Shown piece by piece: positions 1 through 10,666 of a stretch of DNA of 10,666 nt; the first letter of the stretch is position 1, and every line of letters begins with the position of its first letter. The notes below the pieces were generated by a model, which saw only the letters and a list, made by a program, of their open reading frames with translations, had not been told where the DNA came from and did no database searches. Source of the stretch: a virus (Duplodnaviria > Heunggongvirae > Uroviricota > Caudoviricetes); IMG/VR virus record IMGVR_UViG_2609459801_000016. One strand, 5' to 3'. Both the position numbers and the translations under genes were made by a program.

Positions 1-1113
1 ATGAATTACTCTCACGATAACTGGTCAGCAATTCTGGCCCATATTGGTAAGCCCGAAGAACTGGATACTTCGGCACGTAATGCCGGGGCTCTACCCCGCC
101 GCCGCGAAATTCGTGATGCTGCAACTCTGCTACGTCTGGGGCTGGCTTACGGCCCCGGGGGGATGTCATTACGTGAAGTCACTGCATGGGCTCAGCTCCA
201 TGACGTTGCAACATTATCTGACGTGGCTCTCCTGAAGCGGCTGCGGAATGCCGCCGACTGGTTTGGCATACTTGCCGCACAAACACTTGCTGTACGCGCC
301 GCAGTTACGGGTTGTACAAGCGGAAAGAGATTGCGTCTTGTCGATGGAACAGCAATCAGTGCGCCCGGGGGCGGCAGCGCTGAATGGCGACTACATATGG
401 GATATGATCCTCATACCTGTCAGTTCACTGATTTTGAGCTAACCGACAGCAGAGACGCTGAACGGCTGGACCGATTTGCGCAAACGGCAGACGAGATACG
501 CATTGCTGACCGGGGATTCGGTTCGCGTCCCGAATGTATCCGCTCACTTGCTTTTGGAGAAGCTGATTATATCGTCCGGGTTCACTGGCGAGGATTGCGC
601 TGGTTAACTGCAGAAGGAATGCGCTTTGACATGATGGGTTTTCTGCGCGGGCTGGATTGCGGTAAGAACGGTGAAACCACTGTAATGATAGGCAATTCAG
701 GTAATAAAAAAGCCGGAGCTCCCTTTCCGGCACGTCTCATTGCCGTATCACTTCCTCCCGAAAAAGCATTAATCAGTAAAACCCGACTGCTCAGCGAGAA
801 TCGTCGAAAAGGACGAGTAGTTCAGGCGGAAACGCTGGAAGCAGCGGGCCATGTGCTATTGCTAACATCATTACCGGAAGATGAATATTCAGCAGAGCAA
901 GTGGCTGATTGTTACCGTCTGCGATGGCAAATTGAACTGGCTTTTAAGCGGCTCAAAAGTTTGCTGCACCTGGATGCTTTGCGTGCAAAGGAACCTGAAC
1001 TCGCGAAAGCGTGGATATTTGCTAATCTACTCGCCGCATTTTTAATTGACGACATAATCCAGCCATCGCTGGATTTCCCCCCCAGAAGTGCCGGATCCGA
1101 AAAGAAGAACTAA
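1..1113 (+). CDS. insL: IS4-family DDE transposase, IS186/IS421-type (InsL-like), 370 aa
   Basis: Uninterrupted 370-codon ORF starting with ATG at window position 1. C-terminal YRLRWQIELAFKRLK matches the Y-2-R-3-E-6-K signature of IS4-family transposases. Length and N-terminus (MNYSHDNW...) match my recollection of E. coli IS186 InsL; not verified by search. Confidence 0.85.
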   Translation: MNYSHDNWSAILAHIGKPEELDTSARNAGALPRRREIRDAATLLRLGLAYGPGGMSLREVTAWAQLHDVATLSDVALLKRLRNAADWFGILAAQTLAVRAAVTGCTSGKRLRLVDGTAISAPGGGSAEWRLHMGYDPHTCQFTDFELTDSRDAERLDRFAQTADEIRIADRGFGSRPECIRSLAFGEADYIVRVHWRGLRWLTAEGMRFDMMGFLRGLDCGKNGETTVMIGNSGNKKAGAPFPARLIAVSLPPEKALISKTRLLSENRRKGRVVQAETLEAAGHVLLLTSLPEDEYSAEQVADCYRLRWQIELAFKRLKSLLHLDALRAKEPELAKAWIFANLLAAFLIDDIIQPSLDFPPRSAGSEKKN

Positions 1114-1283
1114 CTCGTTGTGGAGAATAACAAAAATGGTCATCTGGAGCTTACAGGTGGCCATTCGTGGGACAGTATCCCTGACAGCCTACAAAGCGCA
1201 ATTGAAGAACGCGAGGCATCGTCTTAACGAGGCACCGAGGCGTCGCATTCTTCAGATGGTTCAACCCTTAAGTTAGCGCTTAT
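1..1283 (+). mobile_element. IS186-like insertion sequence, partial (left end lies upstream of the window); right end inferred near 1280-1284
   Basis: Transposase ORF plus about 170 bp of 3' non-coding sequence ending in the palindrome-rich ...CAACCCTTAAGTTAGCGCTTATG (1262-1283), which I recall as the IS186 terminus. It is followed by a G/C-rich flank (GGGGTGCCGGTGGGG), consistent with the known GC-rich target preference of IS186. The other end is not in the window, so inverted repeat and target duplication cannot be confirmed. Confidence 0.55.
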
Positions 1284-1426
1284 GGGGTGCCGGTGGGGTC
1301 GAGATACGTGGTGTTTTCTTTCCCTTCCCAGTAGCCGGTGTAGTGCGTGGCAATAGTGAACGTCCCGGCTCCGGCCAGAACAAGGGCAATCAGCTTTTTA
1401 CGCAGTGGCGCGGGGAGTTTTGGCAT
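1280..1426 (-). pseudogene. 5' fragment (48 codons) of a SAR-type lysozyme endolysin, truncated by the IS insertion
   Basis: ATG at 1426..1424, translation MPKLPAPLRKKLIALVLAGAGTFTIATHYTGYWEGKENTTYLDPTGTP then TAA at 1282..1280 inside the putative IS terminus. Lys-rich N-terminus plus Gly/Ala-rich weakly hydrophobic segment resembles a signal-anchor-release domain. E34-G35...Y41-L42-D43...G46 fits the start of the E-8aa-D-5aa-T catalytic motif of T4-lysozyme-like (GH24) endolysins; the reading frame is cut just before the expected Thr. Confidence 0.5.
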
Positions 1427-2567: not shown

Positions 2568-2915
2568 ATGAAAATAGATTACGATGAAGTATTAAGTATT
2601 CTCACAACTTTTCAGGATGCTGAAACACCTTTCCTTACACTACAGGATCTGGGCATGGCTGAGGCAGAAGGAGAGGAAAAGGATAAAAAAGTTTTTCATC
2701 TTATGCTTCTCGCTGATAATGGCTCAATTGTTAATGGTGATATGCAGTCAGAAACACCCAAATATATTGGTTTCTTTTTCCATTCTCTGGGCGTTGGTTT
2801 CAGAAACACGCCCATTATGCTTACCCAGCAGGGGCATGATTTAGCTAACGCCCTGAGAAAAAACCAATCCTTGAAAGAATCAAAAAGGAGTTTACAGACG
2901 CACCATTTGATCTAA
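2568..2915 (+). CDS. Hypothetical 115-aa protein on the opposite strand to the early operon; possibly DUF2513-like
   Basis: ATG at 2568 with AAAGG 7 nt upstream; no competing minus-strand ORF of 60 aa or more. Visibly more AT-rich than the flanking genes. MKIDYDEVLSIL..., FHLMLLADNGSIV and LTQQGHDLANAL loosely resemble the remembered DUF2513 pattern (MKRDxDLIRxIL...HLxLLxEAGLI...LTWxGHDFLD); this assignment is tentative. Confidence 0.55.
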   Translation: MKIDYDEVLSILTTFQDAETPFLTLQDLGMAEAEGEEKDKKVFHLMLLADNGSIVNGDMQSETPKYIGFFFHSLGVGFRNTPIMLTQQGHDLANALRKNQSLKESKRSLQTHHLI

Positions 2916-3939: not shown

Positions 3940-4487
3940 GGCGTTAACTCCCGTAATACAGCGTCCTCGGCAGTCCGGCGACGGTAATAAACTGCGTGAG
4001 CAGAATGTTCAGATATTCCAAACTTTTCGCCAATTTCCCGGAATGACAGACGGCGTGGGTAATCGGAATCACGCAGCGCACGTATAAGACGTACATCATC
4101 ATCAGATATGCGCGTGCCGGGGCGTAACTCTCCGCACTTTGTTAATCCAGCACCAATCATTCCTGCCCGACATCTGACAGAATCTTTATTACGTCCGAGA
4201 TATTCTCCCATTTGCTGGCAGGTCATTGTTCTGGCATTTTTTCGAATAAACTTATCTTCATCAGGTGTAAATCTTGGGTGTTTATATTTCAGTAACTCCG
4301 GGTATGAACTGCGCAATACACCAGTCCGGTTATATACAGCCCAGACAGTTCTTTTTATTCTGGCAGCAATATCCTTAACCGGGGTGGATGAATAAAGCGC
4401 AATCAGCAGCGCATCTTCTTCAGGTGTCCACGGACGGACATGAGCGGGGGCGCGACCTTTTAGTCCCATGGGTTGTAATTTCATCAT
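3936..4487 (-). CDS. Predicted DNA-binding protein with two Myb/GcrA-like HTH repeats and a third C-terminal HTH, 183 aa
   Basis: ATG at 4487 with GGGGGTGA upstream. Repeat 1 WTPEEDALLIALYSSTPVKDIAARIKRTVWAVYNRTGVL and repeat 2 FTPDEDKFIRKNARTMTCQQMGEYLGRNKDSVRCRAGMIG both follow the W/F-T-x-E/D-E-D...I/M-A/G...R..AV pattern of GcrA-N/Myb-like HTH domains. The C-terminal LSFREIGEKFGISEHSAHAVYYRR looks like a further HTH. Confidence 0.6.
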   Translation of the reverse strand: MMKLQPMGLKGRAPAHVRPWTPEEDALLIALYSSTPVKDIAARIKRTVWAVYNRTGVLRSSYPELLKYKHPRFTPDEDKFIRKNARTMTCQQMGEYLGRNKDSVRCRAGMIGAGLTKCGELRPGTRISDDDVRLIRALRDSDYPRRLSFREIGEKFGISEHSAHAVYYRRRTAEDAVLRELTP

Positions 4488-4490
4488 GCA

Positions 4491-5006
4491 TCACCCCCTG
4501 ACTCGCTTTTCAGCAGCATAAAACTCATCAGACAGTATTTCGGTCATTTTCTGTTTTGCGGGTTTTACGCCGCACTGAAGGTAAATCACATCGTCAACGC
4601 AGAACCACTTCACAGGGCCAAACAGGATTGCCGAGAAATCAATACCCAGCCAGAACAACAGCGCATCGGTTCTGGCATACGTGACGGGCGAATATTCACG
4701 CCACAGACTGTTCAGTTCATCAGAGGCAACACGCAGGGTTTTAGGGATACGTGATGTGCGCGGTGTGCAGCTCCAGCCATTCGACGCAGTCGGTTTTCGC
4801 CATAAGTCGCGATGAAAAGGATATTTGTCCTCCGTAAAACGCAGTCCCTTAAAGCAAAATCCACTGATACCGGATACAAATACCGACCGGCACGCAACAT
4901 TCAGCACGGCCTCAAGGCGTTTTGCCTCATCCTTAACTTTCTGGCAGTCCTGCTGGTATTTTTGCCACGCAGCCAGCGCGGAAGGGTTTGATGTTTTAAA
5001 GAACAT
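4491..5006 (-). CDS. Hypothetical protein, 171 aa
   Basis: ATG at 5006 with GGAGGTG 5 nt upstream; start overlaps the upstream stop as TAATG. No family recognised. Confidence 0.6.
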   Translation of the reverse strand: MFFKTSNPSALAAWQKYQQDCQKVKDEAKRLEAVLNVACRSVFVSGISGFCFKGLRFTEDKYPFHRDLWRKPTASNGWSCTPRTSRIPKTLRVASDELNSLWREYSPVTYARTDALLFWLGIDFSAILFGPVKWFCVDDVIYLQCGVKPAKQKMTEILSDEFYAAEKRVRG

Positions 5007-5539
5007 TACGCCACCTCCGCAGATATCCCGGCAGGCGCTGCTGTCCGGTCAACAATCAGGTAGCGCAGAACATGTTCAGTGATATTCCAGCCGCTTAAAC
5101 CGCAGATAATGACGCCCAGGCGTATGTCGATATACGCCATCACAAACTGGGGCACGCCTTCTTTCATGGCCTGCTCATCAACTTCAGCCACCACATAAAC
5201 GGTTTCACAGGTCAGAACGCCCTGAGCAAATTCCCACGCCATCGACGGAATATCATGCCCCTCAATCCATGGCAGGGATTTTCTGAAGCCGCACCACTGA
5301 ACATCATCAGCCGCAGATTCCTGGCTGCATTTGCGACGAACCGGCTGCACCGGGCGGGGGCGCGGAATATCATAAAAACCGTTACATTCCGTCAGCACGC
5401 CTGCATCAACCGCATCACGCAGAAAATAAACCATGGAGGATGGCGGCATATTCATTTTTTCAGCCAGTACACCGCAGGTCAGGCGGCCATAAATACGCAG
5501 CCAGTTTTTAACCCCTTCAAGCACTTTTGCATCAATCAT
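5006..5539 (-). CDS. Hypothetical protein with N-terminal winged-HTH-like segment, 177 aa (first gene after the post-gam leader)
   Basis: ATG at 5539 preceded by GGTGGGGAAA. The N-terminal NWLRIYGRLTCGVLAEKMNMPPSSMVYFLRDAVDAGVLTE resembles Lrp/AsnC- or MarR-like wHTH spacing. The C-terminal domain is not recognised. Confidence 0.6.
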   Translation of the reverse strand: MIDAKVLEGVKNWLRIYGRLTCGVLAEKMNMPPSSMVYFLRDAVDAGVLTECNGFYDIPRPRPVQPVRRKCSQESAADDVQWCGFRKSLPWIEGHDIPSMAWEFAQGVLTCETVYVVAEVDEQAMKEGVPQFVMAYIDIRLGVIICGLSGWNITEHVLRYLIVDRTAAPAGISAEVA

Positions 5540-5684
5540 GATTTATTTCCCCACCACATTATTAATGACGATATAAACGTATTTCATATTTCTTAACCCT
5601 TATTTTCTGTTTTCAGGCGCAAGCAGTCCCCTGACGCGAGCGCCATAATTAAAATGAAGTGATATTTAATTGATTAATGCGGTG
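5540..5684 (-). promoter_or_regulatory. AT-rich 145-bp leader between gam and the downstream cassette; candidate internal promoter/operator
   Basis: Only long non-coding gap inside the otherwise tightly packed early operon. Contains the 11-bp perfect palindrome CATTATTAATG (5557-5567) about 18 nt upstream of the ATG and several -10/-35-like hexamers (TTAAGA, TATATC). No promoter could be assigned confidently by eye. Confidence 0.3.
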
Positions 5685-6215
5685 TTATTTATTCAGTCCG
5701 GCGTCCTGTTCAAAAGGCTCGACATAAAAACTTTCAGCGCCTTTATTCACCTTGATACCGGCAATGCCTTTCACAGCATCCGGCTCCGCCAGGACGGCTT
5801 CCTTGTTCACTTCCTCTTTCGTGCGGATGAAACGCTCAAGCCCCATACGGCGCAGCATTTCAATCACACCTTCCACATCACGGCTGACGCTGCATGATGG
5901 CGTTCCCAGCCGCCATGACACCGTTCCGGTGGTCAGATTGGCTGTTTTGGTTTTGCCGCCGTTCGTCAGCTCATCACGGTTGGTTTTGCACCAGTCCTGA
6001 ATCCCTTTAAAAAGCACTTTGATTTGCTTTTTAAGATTTTCAATCTGCGGCGTATAACGGGCGGTGATTTCTGCCACTTCGTCATTCATCGCCGTTTCCA
6101 GGCGCAGCGCCTCTCGCTGAATATCTCCCAGGGTGCGGATATCACGGCTGACTTCTTCCCGGGTCTGCGGTGCCGCCTCGGCTGCGGCCTTTAATTTTGT
6201 AACGCGTTTAGCCAT
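5685..6215 (-). CDS. gam: Host-nuclease inhibitor protein Gam (Mu Gam family), 176 aa
   Basis: ATG at 6215 with AAGGA upstream. The translation aligns along its whole length with Mu Gam as I recall it (e.g. ...WCKTNRDELTNGGKTKTANLTTGTVSWRL...RFIRTKEEVNKEAVL...PFEQDAGL). Confidence 0.9.
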   Translation of the reverse strand: MAKRVTKLKAAAEAAPQTREEVSRDIRTLGDIQREALRLETAMNDEVAEITARYTPQIENLKKQIKVLFKGIQDWCKTNRDELTNGGKTKTANLTTGTVSWRLGTPSCSVSRDVEGVIEMLRRMGLERFIRTKEEVNKEAVLAEPDAVKGIAGIKVNKGAESFYVEPFEQDAGLNK

Positions 6216-6226
6216 TTTGTTTTTCC

Positions 6227-6520
6227 TTATTGCAGTGTGCCTGATGCTTTATGCACGCGGTGGCGTTTAATGATGGCATCCGCTCCAAAAGACTGTGCAG
6301 ATGCCTGAAATTCCGCTGAGAGAAACTGAATAATTGCAGGACTGTGATACTGGAGAATACTTGCATAAACGTCACAGAGTGACGTCGGCCTGTTATCCGT
6401 ATCACGTTCTGTTTTCACATCCACTCCAATCTTTTCATGCACTTCAACACAGTCATTGCCTGCCAACTTTTCGTCATGCGAAACATGATTAAATTCAAAA
6501 ATAACGCGTACTTTGCTCAT
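6227..6520 (-). CDS. Hypothetical small protein, 97 aa; paralog of the adjacent upstream gene
   Basis: The track ORF starts at 6547, but the ATG at 6520 is preceded by AGGGG 7 nt upstream and lies just after the upstream stop. The N-terminus MSKVRVIFEF closely matches MSKVVRIIFEY of the 6525-6797 protein, and the start regions are also similar at the DNA level. Confidence 0.6.
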   Translation of the reverse strand: MSKVRVIFEFNHVSHDEKLAGNDCVEVHEKIGVDVKTERDTDNRPTSLCDVYASILQYHSPAIIQFLSAEFQASAQSFGADAIIKRHRVHKASGTLQ

Positions 6521-6524
6521 GGAA

Positions 6525-6797
6525 TTACCCCTGTTGATTAAATTCATTACCGTTAATAACCCCGGAAGCCATGCCTCTGTCTTTCATGAATGCACTGGCT
6601 TTCATTGCCACAAACTCTGCGAAGTTTCTGCTTTCTGCCAGCATAACCACCCCAAAAATCATGGCGGGTCCATTATCTTTCTTCTTTATTCCGGTTGAAC
6701 GTATATCCAGACTTACCCCTCTGTGCGTGCTGCCATCAGAGTTTTTGCAGATAACATCTTCCTTGTATTCGAAAATAATGCGTACGACTTTACTCAT
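6525..6797 (-). CDS. Hypothetical small protein, 90 aa; paralog of the adjacent downstream gene
   Basis: ATG at 6797 overlapping the upstream stop as ATGA, with GAGGA upstream. Shares N-terminal and scattered internal similarity with the 6227-6520 product. Confidence 0.6.
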   Translation of the reverse strand: MSKVVRIIFEYKEDVICKNSDGSTHRGVSLDIRSTGIKKKDNGPAMIFGVVMLAESRNFAEFVAMKASAFMKDRGMASGVINGNEFNQQG

Positions 6798-7075
6798 CCT
6801 CTGGTCCTCGTTCTGTTTGGATAACTGACCCGGCGTCTAACCTCACGGCAGAACCGAATCATGGCATTAAAGGCTTCTTCCTCCGTCACCGCTTCCGGTA
6901 TCCCCGGAACCAGTAACTGCTCCTGTTCATCACGTCCATGACGCGCCATAACCTCAATCACATACCGTACCGTGGCAGGCTTTCCGGCAACTATCGGCAA
7001 TGCACCTTCCGGCAGGACGTAACCAAACTCAATAAGACCACTCGACCACGCCCATGCAATGAGATTTTTTTTCAC
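6794..7075 (-). CDS. Hypothetical protein, 93 aa (GTG start)
   Basis: GTG at 7075 preceded by GGGAGG with about 6-nt spacing, directly after the upstream TGA. No family recognised. Confidence 0.5.
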   Translation of the reverse strand: MKKNLIAWAWSSGLIEFGYVLPEGALPIVAGKPATVRYVIEVMARHGRDEQEQLLVPGIPEAVTEEEAFNAMIRFCREVRRRVSYPNRTRTRG

Positions 7076-7076
7076 C

Positions 7077-7331
7077 TCACACCTCCCAGTAAACCGTGCA
7101 GCCGCTGATGCGGGTGGCCTTCACACGGCGGCGCAGGCCGTTGGTCTGTATGGTGATTTCAATTTCACCGGTTCCCTGCACGTTGCCTACCGGCGGCGTG
7201 GTTTTCAGTGCAAAACGTTGCGGATAGCGCTTACTGCGTTCCAGTACCGCACCGGCAAGTTCGGTCAGACGGCGCGCGCTGTTCAGGGAGTCGAATAAAT
7301 TCATTTTGTTACCGCAGGATTGCATATTCAT
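7077..7331 (-). CDS. Hypothetical protein, about 84 aa
   Basis: The track ORF starts at ATG 7343. I prefer the ATG at 7331 (or 7325) because AGGTG lies 4-10 nt upstream, whereas the first ATG has no SD. No family recognised. Confidence 0.5.
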   Translation of the reverse strand: MNMQSCGNKMNLFDSLNSARRLTELAGAVLERSKRYPQRFALKTTPPVGNVQGTGEIEITIQTNGLRRRVKATRISGCTVYWEV

Positions 7332-7343
7332 ATAACACCTCAT

Positions 7344-7565
7344 TTAGCTGACTTGTTTCGCACCAACAGAACGGCATATTCCGCTGTAAACTTCTGTCGC
7401 ACCTTCGCGATCAAGTCCGGCAGATATCACCATTCGTGTGCGGTCATTAAATTCAAAAAGTAAATCGCCACATTCTTTATTTTCGGCCAGTGAAATCACC
7501 TTCACGTTATCGAAATTAACCAGGTAAAAGCGTCCGTAAATATCAGGAATATTAAATACCGCCAT
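7344..7565 (-). CDS. Hypothetical early protein, 73 aa, in the position occupied by kil in phage Mu
   Basis: ATG at 7565 with AGGTG (inside the end of the B gene) 5 nt upstream; the track's GTG at 7571 overlaps the B stop. Positional analogy to Mu kil only; I cannot confirm sequence homology. Confidence 0.5.
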   Translation of the reverse strand: MAVFNIPDIYGRFYLVNFDNVKVISLAENKECGDLLFEFNDRTRMVISAGLDREGATEVYSGICRSVGAKQVS

Positions 7566-7567
7566 AA

Positions 7568-8500
7568 TCACACCTGTGAGAGTAATTCAGGGTTGGTATA
7601 AACCTCTTTAAAGGCCGCATTAATATGTTTTTCTGTCAGCGCCGCGCCTTCACCGCTGGCGGTGAGCCACGCCTGGTTAAGCGTATGTGTCAGAACGCGT
7701 AACGCTCCCGGCTTTTCAGCGATAGCCTGCATGACGGCCAGCTCGGCCTCACCACTGATCCCCCACGCCATGGCAATGGCCAGCACATCCGCCTTTTTGG
7801 CCTTGCGAAGTTGTTTTGTACGGGCAAGACGGCTGAACAGGCGCGATAAATCATCAAAGGCGCGGCGTCCACCTTTAAACAATCCGCGCGGGTTACCAAT
7901 AAGCACCATCCCGATCCCCGTGGCGTCCTGAATTGCCCGGAGTTGCTCCAGACCGTCAATACCAAGATGATCCGCCTCATCCACAATCACCAGTCCACGC
8001 GTTCCCATCAGGCGACGGCGGATGGCGCGGGATAATGCCCCTTTGTTCGCGCGGGTGTAATCAATCCCCAGCGCATCGGCCAGCTCCAGCAGACACTCCG
8101 TGACGCTGGAGTGCGCGGGTGACAGGGTGATCATCCAGGTGTTTGGTTGCTCCTGGCAGTAATTACGGGCAGTGGCCGTTTTACCCACACCCGGTACGCC
8201 CACAATAACGTTAATACAGCCCATCAGGCGAACCGCCTGAAACAGTGCGCGCAGCTCCTGGACTGTCTGAGTTTCCACAAACTGCGGCGGTTCCGGCAGT
8301 GCGCTTTGTTTATTCCAGTTCTCATACCAGGAGCGCAGGGAAGCAGCCACAGCGGCGTTATCGCCTTTATATTTCCCCTTGCGGAAAGCCGATAATGTGC
8401 CGTCGGAAATTCCCGCCTCTCTGGCGATGGCATACTGCGTCAGCACGCCGCCATCAATAAGTTCATCAATGGTCTTGATTACATCGTTTATATCGGTCAT
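7568..8500 (-). CDS. B: MuB-like transposition ATPase / target DNA activator, 310 aa
   Basis: ATG at 8500 with GAGGT upstream. Walker A GVPGVGKT, Walker B-like LVIVDEADHL, and end-to-end similarity to Mu B as I recall it (ETQTV..., KPGALRVL...). Lies directly downstream of the transposase. Confidence 0.9.
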   Translation of the reverse strand: MTDINDVIKTIDELIDGGVLTQYAIAREAGISDGTLSAFRKGKYKGDNAAVAASLRSWYENWNKQSALPEPPQFVETQTVQELRALFQAVRLMGCINVIVGVPGVGKTATARNYCQEQPNTWMITLSPAHSSVTECLLELADALGIDYTRANKGALSRAIRRRLMGTRGLVIVDEADHLGIDGLEQLRAIQDATGIGMVLIGNPRGLFKGGRRAFDDLSRLFSRLARTKQLRKAKKADVLAIAMAWGISGEAELAVMQAIAEKPGALRVLTHTLNQAWLTASGEGAALTEKHINAAFKEVYTNPELLSQV

Positions 8501-8539: not shown

Positions 8540-8580
8540 AATAACCTGAGTCGCCGCTCGGGTTATTTTTTTATTTCAGG
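8540..8580. other. Stem-loop with T/A-rich flanks in the A-B intergenic region
   Basis: AATAACCTGAG (8540-8550) / CTCGGGTTATT (8557-8567): 11-bp stem with one G-U pair and a 6-nt loop. Followed on the plus strand by TTTTTTATTT, and on the minus-strand mRNA by UUGAUUAAAC before the B ribosome-binding site. Confidence 0.4.
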
Positions 8581-10666
8581 CCAGAGGGTCATTTTCTTTT
8601 AATTTCGCTTCAAGCAGCTGCAATCCCCGCTGGAAATTACGCTCGTATTCTTCATCAGGTTCATCGTCAGCGACCGGTTGCTGAACGATCACCGTATTAC
8701 CCACAGGGCGGTATATATTTTCCAGCCACGGCTCCTGTGGCTTGTGCTCCAGCACGTTGACAATCTCATCCTCGGCATCACGGATTTTTTCCTCTGCGCG
8801 TTTACGCATGCCTTTAAGGCGCTGCTGCTGTTTGTGGTATTCCGCGCTGACCGGGAAGGCTTCGCGTTTATTGCCGTCCCATACCGCCTCGCAAATCACG
8901 CTGCCATCCAGGCGACGTACGGTAATTCGTTCGGCATCATGAATGTCATAGCTGATAAGCACCTTACGACCATGCTCGTCACGCAGCTCGGGCGCGTAGT
9001 AAATATTATTCAGCCAGCGTATTTCACAGCGTCTTACAGGGCGTTCCACCATCGGCCGGAACATATCCCGCAGCTCAACATCGGACAGCCATTCAATTTC
9101 CGTGTCCTCTTCCGCCAGGCGTTTTTTTCTGAACTCCGCCGGGCTGTAATGCTTGCCGTTCGGCTTCACCGGTAATTCATCGTGCGGCCGGTTGTTGTAC
9201 CACTCAACACCATCACGAATGGCATCAATCAGTTCAGCCCAGGACGGTGAATCACGCATCGCTGACTGCTGCCGGGCGTTCAGCCGTTTGCCCTGTTGCA
9301 GGGCAGTAAATGCCGAGCGTAAATCGCGGTTGGTTTTGCGTAACGTCTCGCGATCTGCACCTTTCCCGAAATAGGTGCGGTATTTACGGGCTATGCGCAT
9401 CGGTAATGTGCGGTTAAGCCGTTCGATAATGCCTCGTCCCTGCGGATTACCGGCAATCCCGGTCGGGTGATTAATCCCCAGTCGCGGCAGTATCCCCACA
9501 ACCTCCTTATCCAGGATGTCGGCGGTTTCCCCGGAGCCGTTATCCGAGTAATACAGAAACGGTTTGCCGTGATGGCGAATGCCGTGCTGTATGGCACCGG
9601 CTACGGCGAAAACATTTTCAGCCAGGTCAAGGCTCCAGCCCACCACAAAGCGCGTGCCACCGTCGATAACAAAGGTCACTTCCGGTGCAAATGGCCGACC
9701 GTGAACCGGGTGTGCGCATTTCAGCTTCATGCCGTGACCGTCACCAATCCAGACATAATTCACCGGCATTCTGGACCAGTCGCGGCGCGTGAATCCCTCA
9801 AGCTGGCGGTATTCACTGCCGGTCACCCGGCCTTTTTGTTTCACCACTTCCGGCAGTTTCTTCATTGCGCGGCGAATGGTGTCATAAGACGGCATGATAT
9901 CGAGCATATAAGGCTCATCAGCGTGCCGGTGCTGCCATTCAGCGACAAAATCCTCGTAAGCCTCGGTCATTGGTCGGCCGTTTGACTGGCGATACTGCGC
10001 CAGAAATTCGGGCAGCCAGTTAATATCTTCGGCTTTTATTTCCTGGCGCTTACCCGGTGCCAGTAAAAGCAGGCGTTCAGCGGCGTTCTGCGCCTTGTTA
10101 AAGGCCGCAATCCAGCGTTTCAGCGTGATTTCACTTAACGCGCGGCTGTTTCCCTTTTTGGCGTTCGCCGTCTCAACCATTGCCACAATGCGCTCGTCCA
10201 GCTGCGAACGTGCCAGGTTGTCAACGATAAACCGGATAGCCTTCGCACAGCTGAAACCAGGTTGTTGCGCGACTTTCAGAACTTCGCTGACGATCGCGAT
10301 TCGTGCATCAGCCACCTGGCGCTGGTTTTCAGTCAGGGCATTAAGGCGTTCGACCATCAGTTGTGGTGATCCGCGATATGCCTCCACCGCATCAACCACG
10401 GCAGGCGAGCGTCTGGCCTTTGTCACCACTGGAGCCGGTGATTCATCGACTTTTTGAGTCATCAGTTGCAGGGCGTAGCGTTCACGTAATGCCTGCTGCG
10501 TCACTTCAGGTAAACAGTCGATGCTGTATTCAGTTGCTTTAGAGCCTGAGCGACGACGGGAACAACAGCTTTTCCCTTGTACGTAACGTTGTAATGCCTG
10601 GCGAATACCTTTTGTTGTAGCAGGCATTCCGGGCGCACCAATCAGTTCTTTTGCAATGACATACAT
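8576..10666 (-). CDS. A: MuA-like DDE transposase, 696 aa
   Basis: ATG at the window edge (10666..10664); the true start could be a codon or two upstream but the N-terminus (YVIAKELIGAPGMP) aligns with the Mu A N-terminus as I recall it. Central catalytic region (...WIGDGHGMKL..., ...YYSDNGSGE...) and C-terminal RPVGNT...DDEPDEEYER tail also resemble Mu A. Confidence 0.9.
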   Translation of the reverse strand: MYVIAKELIGAPGMPATTKGIRQALQRYVQGKSCCSRRRSGSKATEYSIDCLPEVTQQALRERYALQLMTQKVDESPAPVVTKARRSPAVVDAVEAYRGSPQLMVERLNALTENQRQVADARIAIVSEVLKVAQQPGFSCAKAIRFIVDNLARSQLDERIVAMVETANAKKGNSRALSEITLKRWIAAFNKAQNAAERLLLLAPGKRQEIKAEDINWLPEFLAQYRQSNGRPMTEAYEDFVAEWQHRHADEPYMLDIMPSYDTIRRAMKKLPEVVKQKGRVTGSEYRQLEGFTRRDWSRMPVNYVWIGDGHGMKLKCAHPVHGRPFAPEVTFVIDGGTRFVVGWSLDLAENVFAVAGAIQHGIRHHGKPFLYYSDNGSGETADILDKEVVGILPRLGINHPTGIAGNPQGRGIIERLNRTLPMRIARKYRTYFGKGADRETLRKTNRDLRSAFTALQQGKRLNARQQSAMRDSPSWAELIDAIRDGVEWYNNRPHDELPVKPNGKHYSPAEFRKKRLAEEDTEIEWLSDVELRDMFRPMVERPVRRCEIRWLNNIYYAPELRDEHGRKVLISYDIHDAERITVRRLDGSVICEAVWDGNKREAFPVSAEYHKQQQRLKGMRKRAEEKIRDAEDEIVNVLEHKPQEPWLENIYRPVGNTVIVQQPVADDEPDEEYERNFQRGLQLLEAKLKENDPLA

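Follow-up and report, generated by a model that had tools for sequence, protein, structure and literature searches.

Two small genes with closely similar first residues stand side by side in the early region of a Mu-like prophage, and the questions they raise are whether they are related beyond that shared start, how the pair came about, and what its divergence means. An earlier note on this DNA had read them as paralogs that arose by duplication and then diverged, a pattern taken to suggest diversifying selection of the kind seen for proteins that target variable host factors.

The gene pair and its early operon

The window, by which we mean the whole stretch of 10,666 nucleotides analyzed, is the left-end early region of an Escherichia coli Mu-like transposable prophage, read on the minus strand; from position 1284 onward it is 94–99% identical to prophages of many E. 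coli genomes, O157:H7 included. In minus-strand order, the gene for transposase A (8576–10666) is followed by that for a MuB-like ATPase (MuB, 7568–8500), a 75-aa ORF, and a Kil-like gene (7077–7343, minus strand) that matches phrog_2679 (E = 7.8e-46), has orthologs with PF26843 matches in related loci, and serves as the left landmark of the variable region. A 93-aa ORF (orf93; 6794–7075, minus strand; phrog_1518), the two genes at issue, and gam, encoding a Mu Gam-like DNA-end binding protein (5685–6215, minus strand; PF07352, E = 5.5e-42), come next. The latter is the right landmark, beyond which lie, in order, gp11-like and gp12-like genes, a gene for a Myb/SANT protein, a GemA-like gene and mor.

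The pair is thus placed between kil/orf93 and gam. Gene 1 (6525–6797, minus strand), directly downstream of orf93, encodes 90 aa beginning MSKVVRIIFEY, with a pI of 9.25; gene 2 (6227–6520, minus strand, ATG at 6520), directly upstream of gam, encodes 97 aa beginning MSKVRVIFEF, with a pI of 6.27. The coordinates and lengths previously given for these tandem genes between B and gam, with their MSKV(V)R(V/I)IFE starts, proved exact. The ATG of gene 1 overlaps the stop codon of orf93 (ATGA at 6794–6797), and the two would therefore be translationally coupled. Only 4 nt separate the gene 1 stop from the gene 2 start, and 11 nt, including a Shine-Dalgarno-like GGA, separate the gene 2 stop from the start of gam. 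Promoter- and terminator-like sites in the interval 5500–7700 were no more frequent than in shuffled sequence, with none on the minus strand inside the pair, and Rfam yielded no match anywhere in the window.

Gene 1 falls in phrog_4107 (HMM E = 1.7e-54, residues 1–90) and gene 2 in phrog_2230 (HMM E = 1.8e-38, residues 3–97), which PHROGs keeps as separate families under the same label, "unknown function"; RefSeq calls both genes "hypothetical protein". Gene 1 did not match phrog_2230 at E ≤ 0.1. Of 5426 complete E. coli genomes, 232 carried the two-gene region, and in 226 of these 232 a single match spanned at least 80% of the query.

Homology between gene 1 and gene 2

Direct comparison of the two proteins gave a BLASTP match of E = 6e-4 with 22% identity over 76 aa. 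Their Smith-Waterman alignment was significant against 5000 shuffles at full length (p = 2e-4), but marginal once the first 10–11 residues were removed (p = 0.046), and identity outside the first 12 residues was about 11%. Pairwise alignment, the check that the earlier note had proposed, therefore speaks for relatedness at full length and only marginally so past the N-terminus. The 5′ ends are recognizably similar at the DNA level, as had been noticed, with 24 of 30 aligned bases matching and one codon gap; of the six mismatches, four fall at third codon positions and are silent, a pattern that speaks for constraint on the protein and not for gene conversion in recent times. Residues 1–12 are also the most conserved part of the alignment (column entropy 0.7 bits, compared with 1.5–2.2 elsewhere). 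In gene 1 the conserved 5′ coding segment, defined by column entropy, covers 6765–6797 (minus strand; MSKVVRIIFEY) and corresponds to beta-strand 1.

Word-indexed searches returned close E. coli relatives of each gene only. Distant relatives came to light when a profile of the gene 2 family was searched exhaustively and the remote matches it returned were used to seed a second search; they comprise proteins of 96–99 aa, mainly from Salmonella enterica and also from Klebsiella oxytoca and Serratia. Two subtypes can be distinguished among them, "type 1" (MSNKVQVIFTFE...NIH) and "type 2" (MSNKVQVIFTAECE...QTH).

An HMM built from the Salmonella relatives, with no E. coli sequence included, was run against 4702 ORFs from 83 loci. 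It matched gene 2 at E = 2e-15 (residues 3–92) and gene 1 at E = 4e-6 (residues 1–80), and beyond the family nothing among the 4702 ORFs fell under E of about 1. After removal of its 12 N-terminal columns the HMM still matched gene 2 (E = 7e-12) and gene 1 (E = 1.2e-4; 5e-5 for the type 2 HMM on gene 1), and all 38 of 38 gene 1 orthologs outranked every unrelated ORF. Because the truncated HMM retains both genes, the homology is not limited to the N-terminal motif. Reciprocally, the best non-self match of each family's HMM among the 4702 ORFs was the other family. Profile-profile alignment with hhalign gave 85% probability (E = 6e-6) for the two shallow families over 42 columns, within columns 1–45, and this alignment grew to 64–75 columns after intermediates were added, with the gene 1 link at a moderate 82–86%. 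Against the Salmonella relatives, the gene 1 family aligned over 75 of 90 columns (86%, E = 5e-6) and the gene 2 family reached 99.3%.

These results bear on the view that the proteins have just an N-terminal motif in common, which convergence, a partial gene conversion at the 5′ end or a translation signal would have produced, and are otherwise unrelated. The drop to p = 0.046 without the first residues, the confinement of the first hhalign result to columns 1–45, and the placement of the genes in different PHROG families would all suit such a view. The match of the 12-column-truncated HMM to gene 1, the rank of all its orthologs above unrelated ORFs, the extension of the hhalign alignment with intermediates, and the same order of predicted secondary-structure elements in the model of gene 2 and the low-confidence model of gene 1 argue against it, and we consider it very unlikely. 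On the evidence of these profiles, gene 1 and gene 2 are homologous, if diverged, along most of their sequence and belong to one superfamily, so that the shared ancestry beyond the start motif claimed for them is borne out. By the same comparisons, phrog_4107 and phrog_2230 are one family, a new point of the present analysis.

Relatives and their genomic slot

All 35 of the 35 sampled members from Salmonella, Klebsiella and Serratia matched phrog_2230. Salmonella alone contains at least 95 clusters at 90% identity, and protein length is kept across five genera. A first scan of species-representative genomes found no locus, and a second scan found one, in Citrobacter braakii. Prophages of Salmonella, Klebsiella, Serratia and Citrobacter carry a single member in the slot, as do E. 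coli CI5 and the viral contig L013. In each case the slot comes after kil, with or without a homolog of orf93 (91–93 aa), and directly before gam or a DUF3164 gene. These loci show that the family always fills the position just upstream of gam/DUF3164 and downstream of kil in the early operon, and that, as far as we searched, it is limited to Mu-like transposable prophages of Enterobacterales, where it consists of proteins of about 10 kDa.

The gene after the family member (about 4303–4941 or 5303–5941; L083/L084/L088 versus L086/L087/L090) encodes either Gam (PF07352, about 175 aa) or a DUF3164 protein (PF11363, 212 aa). Both choices were seen in Salmonella, Klebsiella and Serratia prophages, and type 1 and type 2 members each occur with either. 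Gam and DUF3164 thus look like alternative occupants of one position.

Direct orthology to genes of phage Mu itself was considered and rejected: a tblastn search of 50,697 phage records with both proteins returned only two Stx phages with an inserted Mu-like element, and not Mu.

Origin of the tandem pair

We then compared each gene with the two subtypes found in other genera. The type 1 HMM matched gene 2 at E = 2e-17 versus 0.017 for gene 1, whereas the type 2 HMM matched gene 1 at E = 1.4e-5 versus about 1 for gene 2. Gene 2 falls inside the type 1 clade, and gene 1, the diverged member of the family, lies nearest to type 2. In neighbor-joining trees, the grouping of gene 1 with type 2 and of gene 2 with type 1 had 80% bootstrap support, compared with 18% for the grouping of gene 1 with gene 2 apart from the types; the association of gene 1 with type 2 could be due to long-branch attraction. 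Each gene is nearer to a different Salmonella class, and the family is single-copy in the slot elsewhere, so the pair is probably not a recent in-place duplication.

If the E. coli lineage of this prophage had recently undergone a tandem duplication and the copies had then diverged fast under positive selection, such a history would account readily for the adjacency of the genes, their similar length, their common start motif and the 24 of 30 matching 5′ bases, as well as for dN/dS ratios that are the highest in the region (see below). It would leave unexplained that each copy is nearer to a different Salmonella allele class than to its neighbor, that the two genes group together in 18% of bootstraps as against 80% for the alternative, and that identity outside the N-terminus is about 11%. 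Nor does any dN/dS window lie convincingly above 1, and the sequences upstream of gene 1 and gene 2 have no homology, so that no duplicated flank survives. We regard a recent duplication as improbable, and duplication followed by divergence in this lineage, as first suggested for these genes, is not the best reading of the pair. Instead, the comparisons indicate that the pair probably reflects an old split, whether as two old allele classes joined in tandem or as an ancient duplication lost differentially.

The possibility that the C-terminal tail of gene 1 and the gene 1–gene 2 junction derive from a remnant of the orf93 3′ end was likewise discarded, as alignments of the upstream regions were not significant.

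Exchange of diverged alleles at the slot

The body of gene 2 has 58–60% protein identity in other E. coli prophages versus 94–100% for the flanks. In CI5, the proteins of the surrounding genes are nearly the same as those of the window (MuB 98%, 75-aa ORF 99%, Kil 94%, Gam 99%), and the single family member shares 60% identity with gene 2; CI5 lacks gene 1 as well as the body of orf93, and about 70 nt homologous to the 3′ end of orf93 lie directly upstream of the family gene. At the DNA level, the CI5 gene is 100% identical to gene 2 over its first ~30 bases and then 60–77% identical up to the stop codon, from which identity returns to about 97% into gam.

The same pattern was found in six E. 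coli contigs (L022, L024, L036, L012, L019 and L027) in which an "allele B" with 58% protein identity replaces gene 2, while gene 1 and orf93, or the replacement of the latter, are nearly unchanged. Compared with these contigs, the variable body of gene 2, which constitutes the allelic cassette (6232–6500, minus strand), has 12–26 of 30 bases identical, and from 6230 onward the count is again 27–30 of 30, giving sharp bounds at about 6500 and about 6232. The conserved 5′ coding segment of gene 2 (6488–6520, minus strand; MSKVRVIFEFN), delimited by its 100% identity to both CI5 and the allele-B contigs over about 30 nt, forms the left boundary of this cassette.

The maximum dS was 1.23 for gene 2 compared with 0.29 for gam; such high synonymous divergence points therefore to import of old alleles by recombination rather than to rapid change in place. 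Across genera the contrast persists, with flanking proteins 52–79% identical and family members 27–30%. Together, these alignments show that deeply diverged allele classes replace one another by recombination, with exchange junctions in the conserved first ~30 nt of the gene and at the stop codon together with the gam ribosome-binding site. That the pair is, judged from these patterns of identity, a tandem of two old allele classes exchanged as recombination cassettes is the second new point of this analysis.

Variation within gene 1 is patchy. Among E. coli prophages, 19–26 of 30 bases are identical at 6740–6770 (codons ~10–20) and 27–30 of 30 elsewhere. In its C-terminal tail (about 6530–6590), the alternative blocks ASAFMKDRGMAS and VNAFMKCSGMSS recombine among alleles, a distribution that suggests mosaicism inside gene 1.

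The neighboring orf93 also varies. L036, L012 and L027 have unrelated sequence in its place, and CI5 and L013 have lost its body but for a 3′ remnant of ~70 nt. Homologs 49–56% identical to it occur in some Salmonella and Citrobacter prophages and are missing from others. From its distribution, orf93 is itself a swappable or deletable module; PHROGs labels phrog_1518 "host nuclease inhibitor".

Selection on the pair

To quantify constraint, dN/dS was determined in 41 E. coli viral contigs for 10 genes of the early region. The highest of the ten values were those of gene 1 (0.29) and gene 2 (0.36), the other eight ranging from 0.10 to 0.24. Sliding windows along gene 1 gave 0.08–0.10 at codons 1–15, 46–60 and 51–65, and 0.7–0.9 in windows spanning codons 16–35 and 71–90. 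In gene 2 allele A, a few windows exceeded 1, each on very few substitutions.

Ratios well below 1 also confirm that these are real coding genes. This bears on the suggestion that a defective prophage carries these ORFs as filler, in decay or without function, for which one might cite the frameshifted or fused variants found in databases (P0030, P0051, P0052, P0061 and P0063) and the IS element in the lysis region of this prophage. Given the low dN/dS overall and in gene 1 codon windows 1–15 and 46–65, the conservation of length across five genera, and the intact state of the two genes in 38 of 40 informative viral contigs of E. coli, we consider this suggestion extremely unlikely. These observations show both genes to be real and protein-coding and, with their tight spacing and no promoter- or terminator-like site on the minus strand inside the pair, co-transcribed.

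Positive selection on the pair is possible; we did not adopt it as an explanation, since dN/dS over whole genes never exceeded 1 and few changes underlie the windows that did. The diversifying selection proposed earlier for these genes is thus suggested, by the highest ratios of the ten genes and the strong allele replacement, rather than shown. The allele replacement would fit selection, diversifying or balancing, that acts at the level of populations on a protein with a variable partner. The allele diversity could instead come from relaxed constraint together with recombination, and then involve no conflict.

Predicted structure and database searches

An AlphaFold model of gene 2, made with a 116-sequence alignment of the superfamily, had a pLDDT of 83.7 and a pTM of 0.70. 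It consists of a long beta-hairpin (strands 4–20 and 24–39), two helices (48–58 and 60–77) and a disordered tail. The model of gene 1, made from a shallow alignment, was poor (pLDDT 53.7), with two long strands followed by a helix, in an order like that of gene 2; with a pLDDT of 54, it was left out of fold searches. Foldseek searches of BFVD and PDB gave no match at E ≤ 0.001, and a profile search of PDB chain sequences returned nothing meaningful. Neither protein matched Pfam or NCBIfam, where the 35 relatives gave only scattered sub-threshold matches, and there was no match to the anti-phage defense proteins of PADLOC-DB at E ≤ 1. In the searchable literature, we found no paper that mentions the RefSeq accessions of these proteins; what it offered was general, about the semi-essential region of Mu and hotspots of accessory genes.

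A toxin-antitoxin pair was considered and rejected, as the two proteins are homologs of each other and the family is single-copy in other genera, in CI5 and in L013.

Possible function

The predicted fold, a beta-hairpin and two helices with no catalytic motif and no membrane segment, would be that of a soluble single-domain binder. Such proteins would be expressed with Kil and Gam from the early transcript and, in the early phase of infection or induction, would bind stoichiometrically to a variable component of the host or of a competitor, most plausibly a host defense or host factor. Specificity would differ from one allele class to the next, and a tandem pair would widen the range. The host-directed functions of the adjoining genes, Kil and Gam, were counted in favor of a binding role. 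We put forward early-acting, class-specific binders, with a tandem arrangement that broadens their range, as a tentative proposal drawn from the model and the context, in which we place less than even confidence. The account as a whole, in which one family supplies old allele classes that are recombined, two of which would stand in tandem here and act as binders, is our best explanation, and we judge it to lie slightly on the probable side.

In a more specific form, the proteins would be polymorphic specificity proteins, either counter-defense inhibitors or prophage exclusion factors, with classes kept by frequency-dependent selection and shuffled as cassettes through the first ~30 nt of the gene; the tandem would then be a two-specificity arrangement. 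We regard this form as possible, if rather doubtful.

The main rival to a binding role directed outward is a phage-internal one, for example as an accessory to Gam/DUF3164, to MuB or to transposition-replication, with the variability explained by co-evolution with a phage partner or by weak constraint. The invariable place directly upstream of gam/DUF3164 in a tightly packed operon would be expected under such a role, as would the conservation of the N-terminal strand in all classes. However, an allele can be 60% identical while the neighboring Gam is 99% and MuB 98% identical, and swaps are therefore independent of the neighbors; moreover, type 1 and type 2 members each occur with Gam or with DUF3164, and phage Mu has no ortholog detectable by tblastn. 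A phage-internal role is, in our assessment, unlikely.

Should the binding role hold, the family would be a compact and easily cloned one, with a natural allele series (E. coli A, B and gene 1; Salmonella types 1 and 2) that lends itself well to mapping the factors which a transposable phage has to neutralize or exclude early in infection. It would also provide the first function for part of the Mu "semi-essential" region, which is still largely uncharacterized (PMC3820752).

Comparison with known systems

Early phage inhibitors of host nucleases or defenses, such as Mu or lambda Gam and T7 Ocr-type proteins, are small early proteins without enzymatic motifs. By analogy, the pair may work like these inhibitors, being likewise small, early, free of enzymatic motifs and encoded beside gam and kil; they differ in having no sequence or fold similarity to them and in not being strongly acidic. 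The median pI of the Salmonella members is 5.6–5.8, gene 1 is basic and gene 2 mildly acidic, and a DNA-mimic mechanism is therefore not indicated.

Within phage Mu, the closest counterparts are the semi-essential ORFs E5–E8 (gp6–gp9), especially gp7/E6, which resemble the pair in their operon, their place between kil and gam, their size and their lack of an assigned function. Genes of the Mu semi-essential region are weakly expressed in lysogens, and their function is largely unknown (PMC3820752). Mu gp7 (E6, 87 aa; AF083977 = L002, 4784–5047) starts MAKVIIEIKN and matches phrog_2230 along its whole length at E = 0.009. Outside the family, it is the best match of the type 2 HMM (E = 0.33–0.64), and it belongs to its own PHROG family, phrog_10252. 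In hhalign, a 15-sequence gp7 family reached 5% probability (E = 0.007) with the type 2 family and lower values with the remaining ones, and gp7, unlike gene 2, does not adjoin gam. On these similarities, Mu gp7 may be a very distant relative of the family.

Transposable phages of Pseudomonas have short ORFs with no assigned function at fixed loci between core genes, and these differ among similar phages (PMC4378225). The slot in the window behaves like these accessory hotspots, a known feature of Mu-like phages (PMC4378225), being variable between conserved core genes, and differs in holding diverged alleles of one family rather than unrelated genes, and in another host clade. The feature is thus of an ordinary kind for phages, a hypervariable accessory slot, here filled by one uncharacterized family, in a pattern often met where phages keep accessory genes. 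The analysis unites two PHROG families, describes a hypervariable slot beside gam with boundaries set by recombination, and amends the view that the duplication was recent; it is useful for annotation and will not surprise phage specialists.

Natural variants and other features of the window

The E. coli variant P0030 (window ~6285–6797) is a natural in-frame deletion that joins gene 1 residues 1–49 (...PAMIFG) to gene 2 residues 79–97 (GADAIIKRHRVHKASGTLQ). The join sits at a shared "FG" and is out of register with the homology between the two genes. This fusion and the frameshifted versions of gene 2 (the other four variants named above) may be pseudogenes or sequencing errors.

At the left end of the window lies an IS4-family element (1–1283) with a transposase ORF at 1–1113 (plus strand; NF033592, E = 6e-38). 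Prophage homology begins at 1284, inside a gene that bears the annotation "lysozyme" in the closest E. coli match, and a 48-codon N-terminal fragment (1280–1426, minus strand) is all that remains of this gene. The insertion thus falls in the lysis region of the prophage, and by this comparison the endolysin gene appears to have been disrupted by the element. Finally, a 115-aa ORF (2568–2915, plus strand), whose RefSeq counterpart is labeled a DUF2513 domain protein, lies on the strand opposite to the early operon, between the GemA-like gene and upstream small ORFs, and looks like a moron, an inserted accessory gene with transcription of its own.
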